64,000 nt of DNA from contig OZ024740.1 in assembly GCA_964016885.1 (NCBI GenBank), positions 358,360,001-358,424,000 on the forward strand. Direction: 5' to 3'. The notes beneath the pieces were generated by a model, which was not told the origin of the DNA, ran no database searches, and saw nothing but the letters and a program-made list of their open reading frames with translations. A program made the position numbers and the translations under genes. Each line of letters begins with the position of its first letter. The first letter of the stretch is position 1. This document shows positions 11,620-50,467 of this stretch, in pieces. The DNA is from Eledone cirrhosa (lineage: Eukaryota).

Positions 11620-12356
11620 TTTGAAGATGCTCTCCTCTGGTCTTTACTTTGGTGGCATGTTTTAGTTTCTTCATCGTGGGCAATCATTAATGACCTCCCA
11701 TCTCTGGATGTCCAGATCTCTTGACTTCACATCTTTCCTGCAGATGTCTTTGAAATGAAGATGAGGTCATCTTTGTGCTTGTGGCCAGTTCCCCATACAG
11801 TCAGTTTTGGGATATGATGTATGTGACTAAGCCAGCGCTGTTGGAGCAGGGTGAATATGTTGGGTATTTTTTTGCAGTTCAGGACTGGTTAACTGGTCGG
11901 TCCACTTGGTATCCAAAATGCGTCTCAGGCTACGAAGGTGGAAGACATTGAGACGCCGCTCCTGTCTGGAGTACAGGCTCCATGTCTTGCTGCTGTAAAG
12001 TTATGTGCTGAGTACACACTCTCTGTAGACAGCAATTTTGGTGTTTGTTGTCTGTTCTCCCAGACTCTATCAGCCTGGAAAATGTGGAGGTTGCTCTTCT
12101 AACTCTCCTGCATATTTTGGGGTCGAAGGAGATGTTGTCAGTGATGATAGAGGTGAGATAGATTAATTTGTGGACTACTTCCAGCTCGTAGTTCTTGATG
12201 GTTATGGTACAGGGTGCTTGACACCTTGGCGCAATACATTGGTTTTTTTTCGGATTGGTCAGGCTGAATTCCTGGCTGGCCCTCGAGAGTTCATCCATGA
12301 GATGCTGTATTTGCCCCTCAAAGTGTGCTGCCAATGAGATTGCAACATTGTCACCC
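11620..12356 (-). mobile_element. RTE-clade LINE RT remnant
   Basis: ...ELEVVHKLIYLTSIITDN...RRVRRATSTFSRL, a frameshifted RT thumb region. Confidence 0.7.
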
Positions 12357-12409
12357 TCTATAATATTGTATATCCATACAATATATACACACTGTACAGT
12401 GAACAAGGT

Positions 12410-13122
12410 AAACAGTAAAAAATATTGTAAACATATACAGTAGAGAAAAAAACTTTTGGCACAAGAGACAGCTCGTAGTATAGGAGAACGGTTAAATGAA
12501 CACTGGCGAGAGCTTCAAGATAAAAAAGAATCATCTGTACTCCACCAACATGCTAAAATAGAACATGAAGGCAAATTAGAGAACATAGAAATAAAAATAG
12601 AATCTACATACAGAAAAGATGCAATGTTTAGACAAATCCCAGAGGCAATAAACATAAATGAACTCCAACCAATATTAAATAGAAAACGATGAATGGAATA
12701 GCAACATCACAACTTACAATTAAGGACAAAATGAAAACACACACACATAGAACAAACAACCAACCAGTAACATGTAAATAAACAAATAAAAATACACACA
12801 GACACCCGGATGTAACATACAAAAACAAGATGGCGTAGGACAGAACAAATGAGAGGCACAAAACAAAGAAAAGAATCCCCAGTCACTGAAGAGGTCACAG
12901 AATGTGTGACGAAAGAACTTTGACAATATATGAACAACCGCCCCGTTGGGGAACCAACCAACCAACCGGAAATTTATAAATTCTTAAATTTATAATAAAT
13001 TGGAGTGAAACAACTGGTGCGTGTGTTTCTTATTGGCAACATGACCCTCCCAAAGTATAACAATATCGGTTTCAACACACGTTTTCAGATAAAGAATCTT
13101 GCTAAACAAATTCAGAAACGAA
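12410..13122 (+). mobile_element. Penelope-like element 3' end: GIY-YIG endonuclease remnant, UTR with hammerhead, ending in (TA)n
   Basis: ORF 12456-12692 (QETARSIGERLNEH...SSVLHQH...RQIPEAINI...LNRK) fits the PLE GIY-YIG C-terminus. Its tail CATGACCCTCCCAAAGTATAACAAT recurs near 42190-42235 (-) and 61021-61052. Confidence 0.75.
12882..12924 (+). ncRNA. Minimal type I hammerhead ribozyme (PLE-associated)
   Basis: GUCA-CUGAAGA-g-GUCACA(gaaug)UGUGAC-GAAA-G(aa)C-UU/UGAC. Stems I and II pair; stem III is minimal. Confidence 0.7.
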
Positions 13123-13339: not shown

Positions 13340-13816
13340 ACTTACACACACACATACGAGCGAGATACGGTCTCCCGACCATTCCCGCATCATATGGAAC
13401 AAAACCGTCTAACCCATGCTAGCGTGGAAGATGGACTTTAAACGATGATGATGATATATATATAGTAGTCATGGGACACAGTTATTAGTTATGCAATAAA
13501 TATATTTTGTACTCAGTGTCATTATAATCCAAGATACCTGCATTTGAAATGTGTTCTATCACGTTTATAGAATATTAAATATCAAATGATACATATATAA
13601 TTAAGTTAAAGTGTACATCTACATATGTATACGGAAGTATTAGTATGCATATAAATACACACATGTATACATATGTACATGTACTCAGCTTTTCACTAGA
13701 CACTTTACAGTGAGTGTCAGCTAGTCTGTATGTAACCACACAGGCGGACCGGGTTTTAGAGTCATACGAGTTTTCAAGGAAACACATTTCCTCTATTCTC
13801 CAGAGGGCCAGACAGG

Positions 13817-13861
13817 AATATTGGACTAGTTTCGATGTTATTACATCTCATCAGCAATATT
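13817..13861 (-). ncRNA. Type I hammerhead ribozyme, array copy 1 (further minus copies at 14286-14330, 14755-14799, 15224-15268, 15693-15737)
   Basis: Minus strand reads AAUAUUG-CUGAUGA-GAUGU(aaua)ACAUC-GAAA-C(ua)G-UC/CAAUAUU. Stem I extends over 13795-13889. Confidence 0.92.
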
Positions 13862-16414
13862 TACCCATCTTCCGGCTTCTCTGGAGAATTGTAAAAGCAC
13901 ATATCGTTATATGCTTTCTCTATGAAAATTAGTAGTGGGTAGACTAATTTGCATAGAACGTGAGTCATTGTACGCACCGGTTCAGCGGAAACGATAAAAA
14001 CAAATAACGAAACGAAATTAAATCTCGTTTCGCTTCTAACTCACTTTTGTATGACTGACGCTTAAACAATTAAGTTAAAGTGTACATCTACATATGTATA
14101 CGGAAGTAATAGTATGCATATAAATACACACATGTATACATATGTACATGTACTCAGCTTTTCACTAGACACTTTACAGTGAGTGTCAGCTAGTCTGTAT
14201 GTAACCACACAGGCGGACCGGGTTTTAGAGTCATACGAGTTTTCAAGGAAACACATTTCCTCTATTCTCCAGAGGGCCAGACAGGAATGTTGGACTAGTT
14301 TCGATGTTATTACATCTCATCAGCAATATTTACCCATCTTCCGGCTTCTCTGGAGAATTGTAAAAGCACATATCGTTATATGCTTTCTCTATGAAAATTA
14401 GTAGTGGGTAGACTAATTTGCATAGAACGTGAGTCATTGTACGCACCGGTTCAGCGGAAACGATAAAAACAAATAACGAAACGAAATTAAATCTCGTTTC
14501 GCTTCTAACTCACTTTTGTATGACTGACGCTTAAACAATTAAGTTAAAGTGTACATCTACATATGTATACGGAAGTATTAGTATGCATATAAATACACAC
14601 ATGTATACATATGTACATGTACTCAGCTTTTCACTAGACACTTTACAGTGAGTGTCAGCTAGTCTGTATGTAACCACACAGGCGGACCGGGTTTTAGAGT
14701 CATACGAGTTTTCAAGGAAACACATTTCCTCTATTCTCCAGAGGGCCAGACAGGAATATTGGACTAGTTTCGATGTTATTACATCTCATCAGCAATATTT
14801 ACCCATCTTCCGGCTTCTCTGGAGAATTGTAAAAGCACATATCGTTATATGCTTTCTCTATGAAAATTAGTAGTGGGTAGACTAATTTGCATAGAACGTG
14901 AGTCATTGTACGCACCGGTTCAGCGGAAACGATAAAAACAAATAACGAAACGAAATTAAATCTCGTTTCGCTTCTAACTCACTTTTGTATGACTGACGCT
15001 TAAACAATTAAGTTAAAGTGTACATCTACATATGTATACGGAAGTATTAGTATGCATATAAATACACACATGTATACATATGTACATGTACTCAGCTTTT
15101 CACTAGACACTTTACAGTGAGTGTCAGCTAGTCTGTATGTAACCACACAGGCGGACCGGGTTTTAGAGTCATACGAGTTTTCAAGGAAACACATTTCCTC
15201 TATTCTCCAGAGGGCCAGACAGGAATATTGGACTAGTTTCGATGTTATTACATCTCATCAACAATATTTACCCATCTTCCGGCTTCTCTGGAGAATTGTA
15301 AAAGCACATATCGTTATATGCTTTCGCTATGAAAATTAGTAGTGGGTAGACTAATTTGCATGGAACGTGAGTCATTGTACGCACCGGTTCAGCGGAAACG
15401 ATAAAAACAAATAACGAAACGAAATTAAATCTCGTTTCGCTTCTAACTCACTTTTGTATGACTGACGCTTAAACAATTAAGTTAAAGTGTACATCTACAT
15501 ATGTATACGGAAGTAATAGTATGCATATAAATACACACATGTATACATATGTACATGTACTCAGCTTTTCACTAGACACTTTACAGTGAGTGTCAGCTAG
15601 TCTGTATGTAACCACACAGGCGGACCGGGTTTTAGAGTCATACGAGTTTTCAAGGAAACACATTTCCTCTATTCTCCAGAGGGCCAGACAGGAATGTTGG
15701 ACTAGTTTCGATGTTATTACATCTCATCAGCAATATTTACCCATCTTCCGGCTTCTCTGGAGAATTGTAAAAGCACATATCGTTATATGCTTTCTCTATG
15801 AAAATTAGTAGTGGGTAGACTAATTTGCATAGAACGTGAGTCATTGTACGCACCGGTTCAGCGGAAACGATAAAAACAAATAACGAAACGAAATTAAATC
15901 TCGTTTCGCTTCTAACTCACTTTTGTATGACTGACGCTTAAACAATTAAGTTAAAGTGTACATCTACATATGTATACGGAGTCCAATATTCCTGTCTGGC
16001 CCTCTGGAGAATAGAGGAAATGTGTTTCCTTGAAAACTCGTATGACTCTAAAACCCGGTCCGCCTGTGTGGTTACATACAGACTAGCTGACACTCACTGT
16101 AAAGTGTCTAGTGAAAAGCTGAGTACATGTACATATGTATACATGTGTGTATTTATATGCATACTAATACTTCCGTATACATATGTAGATGTACACTTTA
16201 ACTTAATTGTTTAAGCGTCAGTCATACAAAAGTGAGTTAGAAGCGAAACGAGATTTAATTTCGTTTCGTTATTTGTTTTTATCGTTTCCGCTGAACCGGT
16301 GCGTACAATGACTCACGTTCTATGCAAATTAGTCTACCCACTACTAATTTTCATAGAGAAAGCATATAACGATATGTGCTTTTACAATTCTCCAGAGAAG
16401 CCGGAAGATGGGTA

Positions 16415-16459
16415 AATATTGCTGATGAGATGTAATAACATCGAAACTAGTCCAACATT
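16415..16459 (+). ncRNA. Type I hammerhead ribozyme, plus-strand array copy (also 16884-16928 and 17352-17396)
   Basis: AATATTG CTGATGA GATGT aata ACATC GAAA CTAG TC CAACATT; predicted cleavage after 16452. Confidence 0.9.
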
Positions 16460-17868
16460 CCTGTCTGGCCCTCTGGAGAATAGAGGAAATGTGTTTCCTT
16501 GAAAACTCGTATGACTCTAAAACCCGGTCCGCCTGTGTGGTTACATACAGACTAGCTGACATTCACTGTAAAGTGTCTAGTGAAAAGCTGAGTACATGTA
16601 CATATGTATACATGTGTGTATTTATATGCATACTAATACTTCCGTATACATATGTAGATGTACACTTTAACTTAATTGTTTAAGCGTCAGTCATACAAAA
16701 GTGAGTTAGAAGCGAAACGAGATTTAATTTCGTTTCGTTATTTGTTTTTATCGTTTCCGCTGAACCGGTGCATACAATGACTCACGTTCTATGCAAATTA
16801 GTCTACCCACTACTAATTTTCATAGAGAAAGCATATAACGATATGTGCTTTTACAATTCTCCAGAGAAGCCGGAAGATGGGTAAATATTGCTGATGAGAT
16901 GTAATAACATCGAAACTAGTCCAACATTCCTGTCTGGCCCTCTGGAGAATAGAGGAAATGTGTTTCCTTGAAAACTCGTATGACTCTAAAACCCGGTCCG
17001 CCTGTGTGGTTACATACAGACTAGCTGACACTCACTGTAAAGTGTCTATGAAAAGCTGAGTACATGTACATATGTATACATGTGTGTATTTATATGCATA
17101 CTAATACTTCCGTATACATATGTAGATGTACACTTTAACTTAATTGTTTAAGCGTCAGTCATACAAAAGTGAGTTAGAAGCGAAACGAGATTTAATTTCG
17201 TTTCGTTATTTGTTTTTATCGTTTCCGCTGAACCGGTGCGTACAATGACTCACGTTCTATGCAAATTAGTCTACCCACTACTAATTTTCATAGAGAAAGC
17301 ATATAACGATATGTGCTTTTACAATTCTCCAGAGAAGCCGGAAGATGGGTAAATATTGCTGATGAGATGTAATAACATCGAAACTAGTCCAACATTCCTG
17401 TCTGGCCCTCTGGAGAATAGAGGAAATGTGTTTCCTTGAAAACTCGTATGACTCTAAAACCCGGTCCGCCTGTGTGGTTACATACAGACTAGCTGACACT
17501 CACTGTAAAGTGTCTAGTGAAAAGCTGAGTACATGTACATATGTATACATGTGTGTATTTATATGCATACTAATACTTCCGTATACATATGTAGATGTAC
17601 ACTTTAACTTAATTGTTTAAGCGTCAGTCATACAAAAGTGAGTTAGAAGCGAAACGAGATTTAATTTCGTCTCGTTATTTGTTTTTGATACATATATAAA
17701 TATAGTAAAATAAAATATATATAATATTTATTTATACATAGTATATATTATACTATGAAAATACGATAAAATAAAGTACCAGTAATGTAGTGGTTAATTG
17801 CTGGCCTTGTGCCTAAAGTAGAAACAATTATATTATTTATTATATATAAATTAACGATTTTATTTATT

Positions 17869-25977: not shown

Positions 25978-26560
25978 CACATTTATACACGTGTGTATAT
26001 ATGTGTATGATGTGTATGTATTAATGTTTGTTCTCTTCAGAGAGAAATAATACATTTTAAAGCTTCTGAACAATAATGGTTTATTAATGGTTTGAAATGA
26101 GATGAAATAGCGATTGATTCTCACATATTATGTACGATATATTTGATATATCTTAACACACCCGCCTACTAAACCCACATTTCTTTCTTTAATCTATTTC
26201 AGGTTGGTTTCACATAAACACTTACACATATACACACACATATACACACATACATATTTACACACATACATACATACATACATACATACATACATACATA
26301 CATACATACATACATACATACATACATACATACATCCATCCATCCATACATACACGAAAGGCTGAAAACTCTGCTAAGAGTTTTGCAATCGCTTGTCAGA
26401 TTATAGAGTTTGGTGCACTTTTAGGCTACGGTCAGCCACACGAACCTGTAGCATATCCCGAACAAGTAATACTTCTGCTTTGAAGGTTTTTTAAGTGGGG
26501 AAAGGCTATACATACATACATACATACATACATACATACATACATACATACATACATACA

Positions 26561-27620
26561 TGGTGGCTGCCAACTCGTTTTCGAGTACGGCCACTACTTT
26601 ATATCCATGTAGGAGAACCCCTACCGATGCGCTAAACAAGTGTGACTTTTTAGTCCAGCCAGCGACTTGAAAACTCTGGTACAAACACTACACCTGTGAC
26701 AATTATTGACACATAGTGCTAGACCCATGGTACGATGTGACGACAAGTGCAGAGAGATCTCCAGATATAAAGCAATGCCTGTGCCGTGAAGCTTTTATAG
26801 TGAGCAAAGGCACTGCACAAAGCCAGTCCCACACTCTTAACCAAGATGATATTTAACAAAAAGAAGAACAAGTCAACATCATTGGATACCATCAGGGTTG
26901 CAGGTGTTATATCAGAGCTTTCCTTCTCCTAGAATTCTGCCTTGACAAAGGCTAAGGGGTCATCTCTCTCGGATACATATATACATACATACATACATAT
27001 ATATATATATACATGGTGGCTGCCAACTCGTTTTCGAGTACGGCCAGCACTTTATATCCATGTAGGAGAACCCCTACCGATGCGCTGAATGAGTGTGACG
27101 TTTTAGTCCAGCCAGCGACTTGAAAACTCTGGTACAAACACTACACTTGTGACAATCATTGACACAGTGCTAGGCCCATGGTACCATGTGACGACAGGTG
27201 CAGAGAGATCTCCAGATATAAAGCAATGCCTGTGCCGTGAAGCTTTTATAGTGAGCAAAGGTACTGCACAAATCCAGTCCCACTCTCTTAACCAAGATGA
27301 TATTTACCAAAAAGAAGAACAAGTCAACATCATTGGATACCATCAGGGTTGCAGGTGTTATATCAGAGTTTTCCTTCTCCTAGAATTCTGCCTTGACAAA
27401 GGCTAAGGGGTCATCTCTCCCGGTGATTTTGGATGGTCATTGACGCTTAAGAGCTCCTTTGCCCTTTGACAGGTTTTGTTTTTAGTCCTGCAGGATGTCC
27501 AAAGTCACCCTCCTCGCCAAGAAACCTTGGTGGGGTTGCCAGTTTAGTCGCCAACGACCCGACCATGAGACAGGTTGTACTGGGATACATGTTACCAGTA
27601 GCACCAACTGGTGACCTGAC
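26561..27620 (-). repeat. Local 453-bp-offset duplication of an interspersed repeat resembling an RTE 5' region, between (TACA)n tracts
   Basis: 26561-26968 is nearly identical to 27014-27419; related segments lie at 28340-28480 and 28920-29465. Confidence 0.7.
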
Positions 27621-27709
27621 ATACATACATACATACATACATACATACATACATACATACATACATACATACATACATACATACATACATACACACATAT
27701 ATACATGAT

Positions 27710-27950
27710 GGACTCTCCAGATTCAAGATTACTCTTCAGCCTTTTCTTATACTTGAGCCATGACCTTTCTACTTTCCTATTAATAATTTGAAGCTGAGTG
27801 TACACGAGGATCTTAAGTATTCGATCATCGTTCATTTTGAGGACATGGCCAGTCCATCGTAATTGAGATTGCATGATGAAAGTCTCAATGCCTCCAATTA
27901 TGCACTTAATTAACAGAGCAACATTTAAGACCTTATCTCCAAGTGTGTAA
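27710..27950 (-). mobile_element. RTE-clade LINE fragment
   Basis: QLRWTGHVLKMNDDRILKILVY motif. Confidence 0.65.
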
Positions 27951-28215
27951 CCACAAATTATACGAGGGCAGCACTTGTGTTACACATCTAGATGATTTAT
28001 GTGTACGATACGGTATCGAGGTCTCAGATTCTACAAAAGGGTGGTGAGAGCAACGGCTTTGTATTAATAGATTTTGATGTTGTTTTCGTACAGAGACGAT
28101 GACAGAGTTCACCAAATTAGTAATTGATACACAATCTTGTAATCATTGGATGTATTTGAGTTATCTTTGCTGTCCAAGTAGGCAAATCAATTAACATATA
28201 TGAGATTCTCCACTT

Positions 28216-32177: not shown

Positions 32178-33720
32178 GTTCTTTGAGTCTCAGTCATTGA
32201 TGTTAGTTAACTGGAAAGTTTGTTGAAATGAATATCAAGCCACTACCTGCAGCCTCAGATATTCAGGACGTATCGGAGGGTTCTTGCTGTTCCCAGCAAG
32301 CATGCCTTTTGAAGTGTTCCAAAAAGCGGGGCGGGGCCAATTTTCTTTAACCATCCCTGGAAACTCTTTAAGATAGTACCTAGTGTGCCTATGACAATCG
32401 GGACCACTTTGACTTTATGGCAGTTCCAAATCCTTTTTACCTCCCACTTTAAGTCCTGGTATCGGTTAATTTTCTCCCTCTCCTTCTCTTGTACTCTCGT
32501 GTCGAATGGGCAGGCCACATCCACAATCAGACACGATCTTTTTTCCTTGTCCCAAACCACCAGGTCAGGTCTATTGTGTTCCAGTTTCTTGTCAGTCTGT
32601 ATCCTAAAATCCCACAGCACCTTCACCTGATCGTTTTCTATCACCGACTCTGGCTTATGTTCATACCACTTCTCAGAATGTGGTAAATTGTTTACTTTGC
32701 ATAGGTGCCATCACATCATGTCTCCAGCCTTTATATTGAGTCTGGGCTAGGTGTTTACACTCGGATACAATGTGAGCCACAGTCTCCTCTCTCTCTCCAC
32801 AGATCCAGCACAGTGGGCTAGCCTCCTCTTTGTAAATACGGTGTTTCAGCCACTTCGTTTTGAGGGCCTGCTCTTGCGCAGCCATTAGCATTCCTTCTGT
32901 AGCCTTTTTATGGTCTCCTTTTTTCAACCAGTTCCATGTCTGTGGATCTCTGAATTCAGTTTTCTCAAAGAAGGTACTATAAAGGGATTTTTCATGAAGG
33001 CTGCTCTTTCTCCTTCTTATTTCCTCCTTGGAAATCCCCTAGTCTATTGTCCTCTCCTTCAGTACAATTCTGAGCATTGGCTCCTTACTATCAGTCACGT
33101 ATTTGTGTAGGTTGTTTTTCTCCATCTGAACACAGTCCTCTATGCTGATAAGACCTCTTACACCTTCAGATCTCCTTAAGCAGAGTCTATTGACATCACT
33201 CCTCTTGTGGAACATGTTGTAGATAGTCAATAGCTTCCTAGTCTTCCTATCCATTTCTTTTTGTTCAGCAACATTCCATCTCAGAATTCCCGCACTGTAC
33301 CTAATAATAGACACAGCTCGGAAATTTACTGCACTTATGGCATTCCTACTGTTCAGATGTGACTTTAATACGCTCCTTATTCTCCGAATGTATTCAGATC
33401 TTATCAATTCCTTCATTTTTTTGTTCTGGATGTCATCAGCCTCCAGAGCACCCAAATACTTGTATCCTTCTTCAGTGTCAATTTCCTTTATCATCTCACC
33501 TTTTGGTACCTGGATTCTGTTGCTTCTGCTCAATTTACCCCTCTTCATCACAAGGACTCCACACTTACTAATACCAAATTGCATACATATATCATTGCTG
33601 AAAATATGGACAGTGTCAACAAGCACATCCAACTCCTTCTCACTCTTCCCGAAGAGCTTAAGATCGTCCATGCAGAGGAGGTGATTGCCAACGTTCACAC
33701 AGAAAGATGAATTTGTCACC
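32137..33720 (-). mobile_element. 5'-truncated R4/Dong-clade non-LTR retrotransposon (RT, CCHC finger, restriction-like endonuclease) with a (TAA)n tail
   Basis: HLLCMDDLKLF, YKYLG, CWICGEREETVAHIVSEC and NRPDLVVWDK...IVDVACPFD...KINRYQDL. Split into three frames; ends in (AAT)n at 32137-32177. Confidence 0.9.
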
Positions 33721-34157
33721 TCGTGCGCCGCTAGTCAAACGTGGTAAGCGTGTATTGAATAGAAATAACAGTCCAACACACACAACTTAATAAGCTCAAC
33801 TTGTGAGGGAGCAGAAATATATATGAAAATTAGAGTTAAAACTCAATTGGAACCCTGTAACTATTAAGCTCAAAGTATAAATACTGAGCCGATATATATA
33901 GTAAGAAACACAGTAAACCGTGTGTCTAAAATTACAAGGGTTGAAAAACCACATTTGTTTGAAATATTTAACCAAGAAGCAGACAGAATGATAAAATATA
34001 CAAACCGCCTCAATAACCATTATATCTCTCGGACAGATTATCCCTATATATATATATATATATATGTATGTAAATGGTAAACAGAAATAACAACACAATC
34101 GGTACAGTATATGGAAGGTATATATTATGTTAACGCTTGATAAAGCAGGAAGAGGGC

Positions 34158-50396: not shown

Positions 50397-50467
50397 TGAC
50401 GTACATGGGAGTCGAACCCACATCTTTGGTTAGCGCGACCACTGTGCTACCATTACACCAACTCATC
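50397..50467 (-). pseudogene. tRNA-like cloverleaf (pseudo-tRNA or SINE head) inside a rearranged repeat
   Basis: A box TGGTGTAATGG, anticodon arm TGGT(CGCGCTA)ACCA, T arm GTGGG(TTCGACT)CCCAT, weak acceptor stem, and a T5 run about 12 nt downstream. Confidence 0.55.

Follow-up and report, generated by a model that had tools for sequence, protein, structure and literature searches.

Two-site, head-to-head insertions of a young hammerhead retrozyme family in Eledone cirrhosa and their likeness to Penelope-like elements

The window analysed here, a 64,000-nt stretch of the Eledone cirrhosa genome, carries an array of 469-bp units with hammerhead ribozymes at positions 13599–17686. This array is a single insertion of two head-to-head arms within a 14-bp target-site duplication. 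Judged from sequence, it represents a real and young retrozyme family, whose insertions carry the two-site footprint of Penelope-like elements (PLEs) with unusual clarity.

Two-armed insertions and their fixed outer ends

Repeats in the window were located with Tandem Repeats Finder, and the strand and identity of the copies were determined by BLAST with the reference unit at 16453–16921. The former divides 13599–17686 into two arrays with a 469-bp period, one of 5.1 and one of 3.6 copies, and the latter places the two arrays on opposite strands, with units 98.7–100% identical to the reference. An earlier note, made from the letters of this DNA, had described about 8.7 copies of a 469-bp monomer with few differences, which agrees with the sum of the two arrays; the tandem array that it described is, however, no single head-to-tail run, but two arms in opposite orientation, 13599–15980 on the minus strand and 15980–17686 on the plus strand. 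Read in the sense of the ribozyme, both arms face outward from the junction at 15980, i.e. they are head-to-head. The 14-bp string found at 13587 and 17686, the outer ends of the array, occurs just these two times in the window, and therefore the 4.1 kb can be treated as one insertion. The unit has a GC content of 37% and, as had been noted, no credible open reading frame (ORF), the longest stop-free stretch being 84 codons; two further hairpins named at the same time are also present in it. No ORF for a reverse transcriptase (RT) or a GIY-YIG endonuclease was found in the unit or in the whole window insertion, which is laid out as follows.

13587–13600, plus: left 14-bp copy of the target-site duplication, imperfect and TA-rich, with its final 2 nt common with the array
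13599–15980, minus (ribozyme sense): left arm of 5.1 units, with its 3′ end outermost at unit position 225 (short site) and its 5′ end innermost at 189
15980, no strand: head-to-head junction of the two 5′-truncated arms, with a 1-nt overlap
15980–17686, plus (ribozyme sense): right arm of 3.6 units, with its 5′ end innermost at unit position 466 and its 3′ end outermost at 297 (long site)
17686–17699, plus: right copy of the target-site duplication, with its first base common with the array
16453–16921, plus: reference unit, spanning one cut site to the next; predicted monomer of self-cleavage, with a circle fold of z −10
16676–16683, plus: short priming site (unit 224–231) in the reference unit
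16711–16739, plus: hairpin of 13 bp (unit 259–287) that separates the two priming sites and bears the locus-private 269G
16747–16751, plus: long priming site (unit 295–299) in the reference unit

The genome searched comprises 3.0 Gb. The unit gives at least 408 matches, counted from the 38 scored out of 559 candidates, and an exact marker of the window family, termed family A, matches 769 times genome-wide. With insertions flanked by target-site duplications at other loci as well, the dispersed copies that the earlier note had named as a check are present. Among sequencing runs, 13 of 21 listed rows from nine studies contain part of the stretch, none contains as much as half of its words, and no RNA run is listed; these rows were set aside as evidence. 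A sister family, A2, has a unit of 466–470 nt that is 89–90% identical to the window unit, and a second one, B, has a unit of 466–511 nt with an internal (TA)n and 61% identity (e.g. L105:7579–9901, L177 and L179). A motif common to families A and B has 17,591 matches, compared to 0 for a control, and the genome holds a superfamily of about 17,600 putative retrozyme units.

The insertion footprint was defined from 35 insertions, namely that of the window and 34 others from 35 stretches among the best unit matches, which were picked for near identity to the window unit. Two head-to-head arms, that is, an inverted 5′-truncated copy, are found in 25 of the 35 insertions; both ends are fixed in 21 of them and one end is irregular in four, and the ten others are single-armed. 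The outer 3′ ends fall at unit positions 224–231 or 296–299 in 56 of 59 cases, at two sites approximately 70 nt apart and far from the ribozyme cut, and every regular two-armed insertion (21/21) pairs one long end with one short end. The difference between the two ends leaves a tail of about 70 nt. Nearly all anchored ends (53/54) adjoin alternating A/T, for which the background is 7%, and the fixed ends show 1–5 nt of UA/UAU in register with the (TA)n. Target-site duplications, readable only where the flanks are not pure (TA)n, measure 14 bp in the window, 13 bp at L059 and 11 bp at L040. The inner ends behave differently from the outer ones: the 46 examined are uniform across the unit (Kolmogorov–Smirnov p 0.56), none falls 2 nt or less from where the ribozyme cuts, and no clustering is seen at the start of the opposite arm. 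They are joined with 0–9 nt of overlap or a short filler, and the junction differs at every locus.

Because the 35-locus set was chosen by similarity, position-ordered lists of 69 long and 72 short junctions from the first 82.7 Mb of one contig were paired as a test. Among 48 head-to-head pairs within 20 kb, 46 combine a long with a short end, two are short-short and none is long-long; five further neighbour pairs within the same distance show another geometry. Genome-wide, 2,187 long-end junctions were counted, and the control gave none. Of 33 stretches taken in order of position, at least 14 show two arms with both fixed ends, all of them long plus short (two of family A, five of A2 and seven of B), the remainder being single-armed, cut off or irregular. 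Families A2 and B end at two sites homologous to those of A. The end at L184, considered as a short-short case, actually lies within the internal (TA)n of family B.

Two insertions of unusual form were also observed. In a family-A insertion at G000:C1:127664830-127686763, one arm has two units and the opposite one has at least 45, spaced exactly 469 bp apart. The 14.4-kb insertion at L054/L055 comprises two head-to-head units joined tail-to-tail at the 259–287 hairpin, with 348G in 29 of 29 copies.

The hammerhead ribozyme and the putative template of insertion

The hammerhead core consists of CUGAUGA, a 5-bp stem II, GAAA and GUC, with the cut after 16452. The window has eight whole hammerheads, of which seven have an intact core; in one C3 is changed to U at 15261, and an A–C mismatch is present in stem I of five others. 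From the conservation of the core, the hammerhead with the C3 change (15231–15261) is probably inactive. The earlier claim of a complete hammerhead in each unit thus stands for the core, stem II and the GUC site, but not for every unit, since there are eight whole copies, one with the C3U change, and only two of the eight match the pairing as it was drawn. The ribozyme features are the following.

16422–16452, plus: type I hammerhead core, cut after 16452; likewise 16891–16921 and 17359–17389; stem I mismatch allele after all three
13824–13854, minus: hammerhead core with perfect stem I; likewise 14762–14792
14293–14323 and 15700–15730, minus: hammerhead cores with stem I mismatch
15231–15261, minus: hammerhead with C3 changed to U
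16387–16481, plus: extended stem I around the core; families A and B both retain its 2-nt bulge

The proposed extension of stem I through bulges is borne out by a 121-nt fold of −40.8 kcal/mol (z −4.5), which none of 200 shuffles equalled. The Rfam check gave a divided result: Hammerhead_HH9 is the best model at all eight sites, with E values of 3e-5 to 6e-4, but its scores of 27.9–31.8 bits remain under the cut-off of 52, and no hammerhead family reaches its gathering score. Matches to miRNA-like Rfam families were rejected as an AT-rich hairpin far under the cut-off. In an alignment of ten hammerheads (seven distinct sequences, essentially three lineages), changes on both sides occur at 6 of 20 pairs and 95.7% of cells are paired, compared to 30–49% in slid controls; the core and stems are kept with compensatory changes between families that are 61% identical. 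Helix III is a single base pair with a palindromic CUAG loop, a form that is described as cleaving well only as a dimer (PMC7229834, PMC4209133).

Folded as a circle, as had been suggested, the unit is predicted to be strongly self-paired (z −10 to −12), with stem I of the majority allele closing over the cut site. The opposite strand folds almost equally well (z −9.6), and therefore the circular fold alone gives no polarity. Only one polarity of the unit bears the ribozyme, and a retroelement route has integrated the copies in the genome, so the term viroid-like, which the earlier note had offered, is unsupported. Its proposal of a young, non-coding hammerhead repeat of the non-LTR (long terminal repeat) retrozyme kind fits all features tested at this level.

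Allelic differences between copies bear on the template. An allele is fixed in all covering copies at 13 of 38 family-A insertions, and in both arms at ten of these; among the same 38, no two-armed locus has arms of different haplotype, and one locus of family A2 holds 13 locus-fixed alleles. All nine window copies have the 269G allele; elsewhere in the genome just one unit has it, on a different haplotype. That unit, a copy on C14, was rejected as a donor since it lacks the 375G of the window, and its 269G is ascribed to recurrent mutation; consequently, this assembly has no donor array with 269G. The arms run across up to 15 cut sites (L053), which, together with the lack of an inner end at the cut and the shared haplotypes, fits repeated reading of one circle. 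A trimer circle was rejected as the template of the window because the allele phases of the two arms do not match.

Single-copy differences amount to 0.16% per base, and the ten units of L042 have no variant at all. For 55 single variants the opposite arm could be checked, and in no case was the variant common to both arms, which indicates that exchange is rare. A>G and T>C account for 51 of the 91 locus-fixed alleles in families A, A2 and B, whereas C>T and G>A are the most frequent among single-copy changes. The bias of the locus-fixed alleles may be caused by selection on RNA structure or by a consensus of wrong polarity; template editing of the A-to-I type is unsupported (29 A>G against 22 T>C, p 0.40).

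The proposed helper enzyme and rival explanations

Candidate partners were surveyed by a GIY-YIG scan, by 16 stretches with long ORFs or flanking positions and by local alignments. The genome yields 10,596 GIY-YIG candidates, of which 150 were scored, and they include ORFs of 900–1,100 aa. In six scanned proteins, Pfam recognises both RT and GIY-YIG in three and only RT in one, and it has no match for the other two (L168 and L109), which carry motifs described for Hydra (PMC8557442). The autonomous PLEs of this genome also have long and short ends in (TA)n, one per arm, as seen in five of five inverted units of the Hydra-type family X and in the one unit of the Neptune-type family N2. Endonuclease-bearing PLEs are described as having an inverted 5′-truncated copy, a one-sided tail of 30–40 bp and a (TA)n bias (PMC8557442), and a PLE protein, modelled as a dimer, nicks and extends both strands, and the tail is set by the two internal sites on the RNA where it starts (PMC11167929). 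Given the same long and short ends in local PLEs and the two-site start of a PLE RT, the retrozyme footprint can be equated with the PLE footprint. The fixed ends, their long-plus-short pairing, the (TA)n target and the local PLEs lend direct genomic support to the earlier guess that the family borrows a Penelope RT.

We favour, with modest confidence, the reading that the family is a non-autonomous retrozyme with a hammerhead, and that a PLE bearing an endonuclease mobilises it in trans. Priming at two sites in the manner of PLEs is highly probable and, given such priming, a circular template is rather probable. The arrays would be transcribed, for which an octamer-type motif is conserved, and adjacent hammerheads would pair via the palindromic helix III to excise 469-nt units that ligate into circles, by analogy with described retrozymes. 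A dimeric PLE protein with RT and GIY-YIG domains would then nick (TA)n with a stagger of 11–14 bp; here the target and the duplication are observed and the enzyme is inferred. Each nicked strand would prime cDNA at its own fixed site, 224–231 or 295–299, through 1–5 nt of UA/UAU pairing, a step based on the end positions and the long-plus-short pairing. Both cDNAs would traverse several units, probably round the same circle, halt at random and be joined by microhomology or short filler; the random inner ends and the common haplotype are seen in the insertions, and the circle is suggested by them. Tentatively, a single dimeric PLE enzyme may prime both strands on one circle at the sites flanking the hairpin and roll both cDNAs, which would explain the arrays as well as the tail and inverted copy of PLEs, and the superfamily may be recognised by RNA shape, not by sequence in common with its helper, and have its own promoter of the small nuclear RNA (snRNA) type.

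Several observations weigh against this reading. Single-armed or irregular insertions make up 14 of 35, and the tail of about 70 nt compares with 30–40 bp for PLEs (PMC8557442), the local PLE tails being about 55, 70 and 100 nt. At 9 of 38 insertions an allele is present in some copies only; in the window these are 4C (5/9), whose pattern differs between the two arms, and 184T (2/9). Such partial alleles cannot arise from a single monomer circle without later conversion, and conversion between copies could also have spread an allele scored as fixed, while a donor array could lie on an unassembled haplotype. Local alignment of the unit with 13 terminal regions of about eight PLE families revealed no real similarity; the scores that exceeded z 2.5, five to seven in number, were due to low complexity or to a neighbouring family-B copy. 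Insertions abutting PLEs were rejected as chimeras, since L035 is short plus short, L061 is long plus long and L056 is an inversion in mid-ORF. Furthermore, the hammerhead of an anole PLE is dispensable in vitro, where unprocessed RNA is the main substrate (PMC11167929).

The last point bears on the rival closest to the favoured mechanism, in which the same PLE enzyme and two-site priming act on long uncleaved linear or small multimeric read-through RNA and the hammerhead is incidental. We consider this rather unlikely, although insertion by the anole PLE was unaffected by hammerhead mutants (PMC11167929), the weak helix III implies slow cleavage (PMC4209133), only one of nine Xenopus dimers was cleaved (10.64898/2026.07.22.740005), and partial alleles occur at 9 of 38 loci, in L040 and L050 at the same unit index in both arms. 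Such a template would have to be reconciled with the absence from this assembly of a donor array with the window haplotype, with the lack of any inner end at the cut site, and with a core and stems that are kept by compensatory changes across 61% identity.

Alternatively, short two-armed insertions of PLE type could have gained most of their units later, like a satellite, by unequal crossover, slippage or conversion. The dimer-like allele patterns in L053, the internal duplication in L054/L055, the C1 arm with its 45 or more units and a published model of local amplification (10.64898/2026.07.22.740005) would fit this view. Even so, it seems improbable, given that multi-unit arms are common despite so few single-copy differences, that the ten-unit locus L042 has no variant, and that the 55 single variants unshared with the opposite arm speak for rare exchange; later amplification likely holds for the longest arrays but not as the rule. 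DNA transposons also show inverted termini, target-site duplications and TA targets, so that an element moving as DNA (a fold-back transposon, or one resembling miniature inverted-repeat transposable elements, with internal repeats) might be considered, as might an assembly chimera. Both are highly improbable: the termini are unequal, one long and one short, the inner junction is different at every locus, the duplication varies in length (11–14 bp where readable), and the same layout recurs in RT-coding PLEs and at thousands of loci.

Some PLE-related loci were recorded beside this comparison. Young Hydra-type PLEs lie at L168:2796–5531 and L109:985–3789, one with a 912-aa ORF and the second with a frameshift, and the tail of family X is about 100 nt; both were considered as Naiads, but their motifs fit Hydra instead. 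At L056:1450–4610, the 5′ part of the adjacent PLE is duplicated in inverted orientation over 1.1 kb on the flank of a retrozyme arm, which suggests a template switch to flanking DNA. In the window, approximately at 12470–13121 and 480 bp left of the array, the 3′ end of a PLE of family Z retains a GIY-YIG remnant, a hammerhead-like motif and a long end at (TA)n; the tail of family Z is about 70 nt, like that of the retrozyme, and no sequence similarity to the unit was found. At least 12 further hammerhead-like families end at (TA)n in the fetched loci, several with two alternative ends. Microsatellites are here shared landing pads for PLE-type elements. L162–L163 contains a 2.6–2.85-kb tandem unit with two tRNA-like genes, a short head-to-head insertion of family X and a perfect palindrome between (TA)n tracts.

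Relation to known systems and window neighbours

The window family is, by every sequence feature tested, a non-LTR retrozyme. It was compared with the metazoan members of this class from coral, mussel (350–390 bp), axolotl (330/350 bp) and newt satellite 2 (PMC7229834), and with a vertebrate survey (10.64898/2026.07.22.740005). It shares with them a short tandem unit of low GC content that carries one type I hammerhead and no ORF, a highly self-paired predicted circle, a duplication longer than 4 bp and the coexistence of PLEs in the genome, and with amphibian retrozymes the helix III of one pair with a palindromic tetraloop, described as cleaving in dimeric form. The metazoan retrozymes are described as head-to-tail, with the mobilising RT unresolved, whereas the present family is head-to-head, has two fixed priming sites and targets (TA)n. 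Unlike many Xenopus families, it shows no similarity to PLE terminal repeats among the 13 regions of about eight families compared. Its length is ordinary: 469 bp lies within the 51–972 bp of published consensus lengths (10.64898/2026.07.22.740005; 150–450 bp in PMC7229834), contrary to the earlier impression of an overlong monomer. Retrozymes and the PLE tail are likewise already known.

The family resembles endonuclease-bearing PLEs (Neptune, Hydra, Naiad and Poseidon; PMC8557442, PMC11167929) in the inverted 5′-truncated copy, the one-end tail, the two internal RT starts and the targeting of microsatellites, and those elements carry a hammerhead in their terminal repeat. At its starts the retrozyme pairs with the (TA)n primer over 1–5 nt; for the anole PLE enzyme, by contrast, the sites of starting were non-homologous (PMC11167929). 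Like Chlamys MRC1, the family would be a non-coding dependant of PLEs with several copies head-to-tail per insertion; MRC1-type elements resemble the autonomous family at the 3′ end and mostly do not have canonical hammerheads (PMC8557442). Unlike PLEs, the retrozyme has no RT/endonuclease ORF, its unit is repeated many times per arm, and its tail is about 70 nt. In twin priming by LINE-1 (long interspersed nuclear element 1), both target strands prime cDNA and give rise to an inversion inside the target-site duplication; the position of the second site varies and, on the one linear RNA, sets the limit of the first cDNA. By contrast, both sites are fixed here, both arms run on independently for several units, and the inner ends are not clustered at the start of the other arm.

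We found no report of head-to-head, two-site retrozyme insertions, nor of such a family in cephalopods, in a literature coverage that lay outside most subscription papers, Repbase and supplementary figures; supplements may show the layout. The word "inverted" does not occur in the available text of PMC7229834, nor do "tail" and "orientation" in that of 10.64898/2026.07.22.740005, and the accessible parts of PMC8490949 and PMC11722881 describe no such layout or family. In squid, 235 hammerhead matches have been counted (PMC6962438). PLEs are regarded as only a strong candidate helper of retrozymes (PMC7229834), and the preprint evidence on the helper consists of co-occurrence and terminal-repeat similarity (10.64898/2026.07.22.740005); both sources state the mobilising enzyme of animal retrozymes and the circular template as open, and the origin of the PLE inverted copy and one-sided tail has been called undefined (PMC8557442). 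The present family offers thousands of very young insertions with nucleotide-exact starts, a strict rule of one site per strand and haplotype tags. Several young PLE families with long ORFs in the same genome provide a short list of enzymes, and the defined 469-nt substrate and target allow a direct in vitro test of retrozyme spread. If true, the favoured mechanism would be a route to target-primed insertion of multimers from circular RNA.

A candidate internal promoter was noted in the unit.

16791–16823, plus: hairpin motif invariant between families A and B, holding the octamer-type ATGCAAAT; candidate internal promoter element

The promoter of newt satellite 2 includes an octamer. In the present unit, ATGCAAAT lies in an imperfect inverted repeat whose one mismatch is kept in A and B, and its role as an internal promoter element may be taken as a lead only. 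An internal promoter of the snRNA type is described for newt satellite 2 (PMC2220036).

No host gene was recognised near the array. Elsewhere in the window, 26520–27423 is a two-copy 451-bp repeat, 94% identical and bounded by (ATAC)n, in which no hammerhead was seen by eye. Decayed fragments of LINE-type RT/endonuclease, judged by the look of their translations, lie at 11930–12514, 27482–27979 and 32255–33734, and a tRNA-like sequence at 50397–50467 (36.6 bits) is possibly the head of a short interspersed nuclear element.

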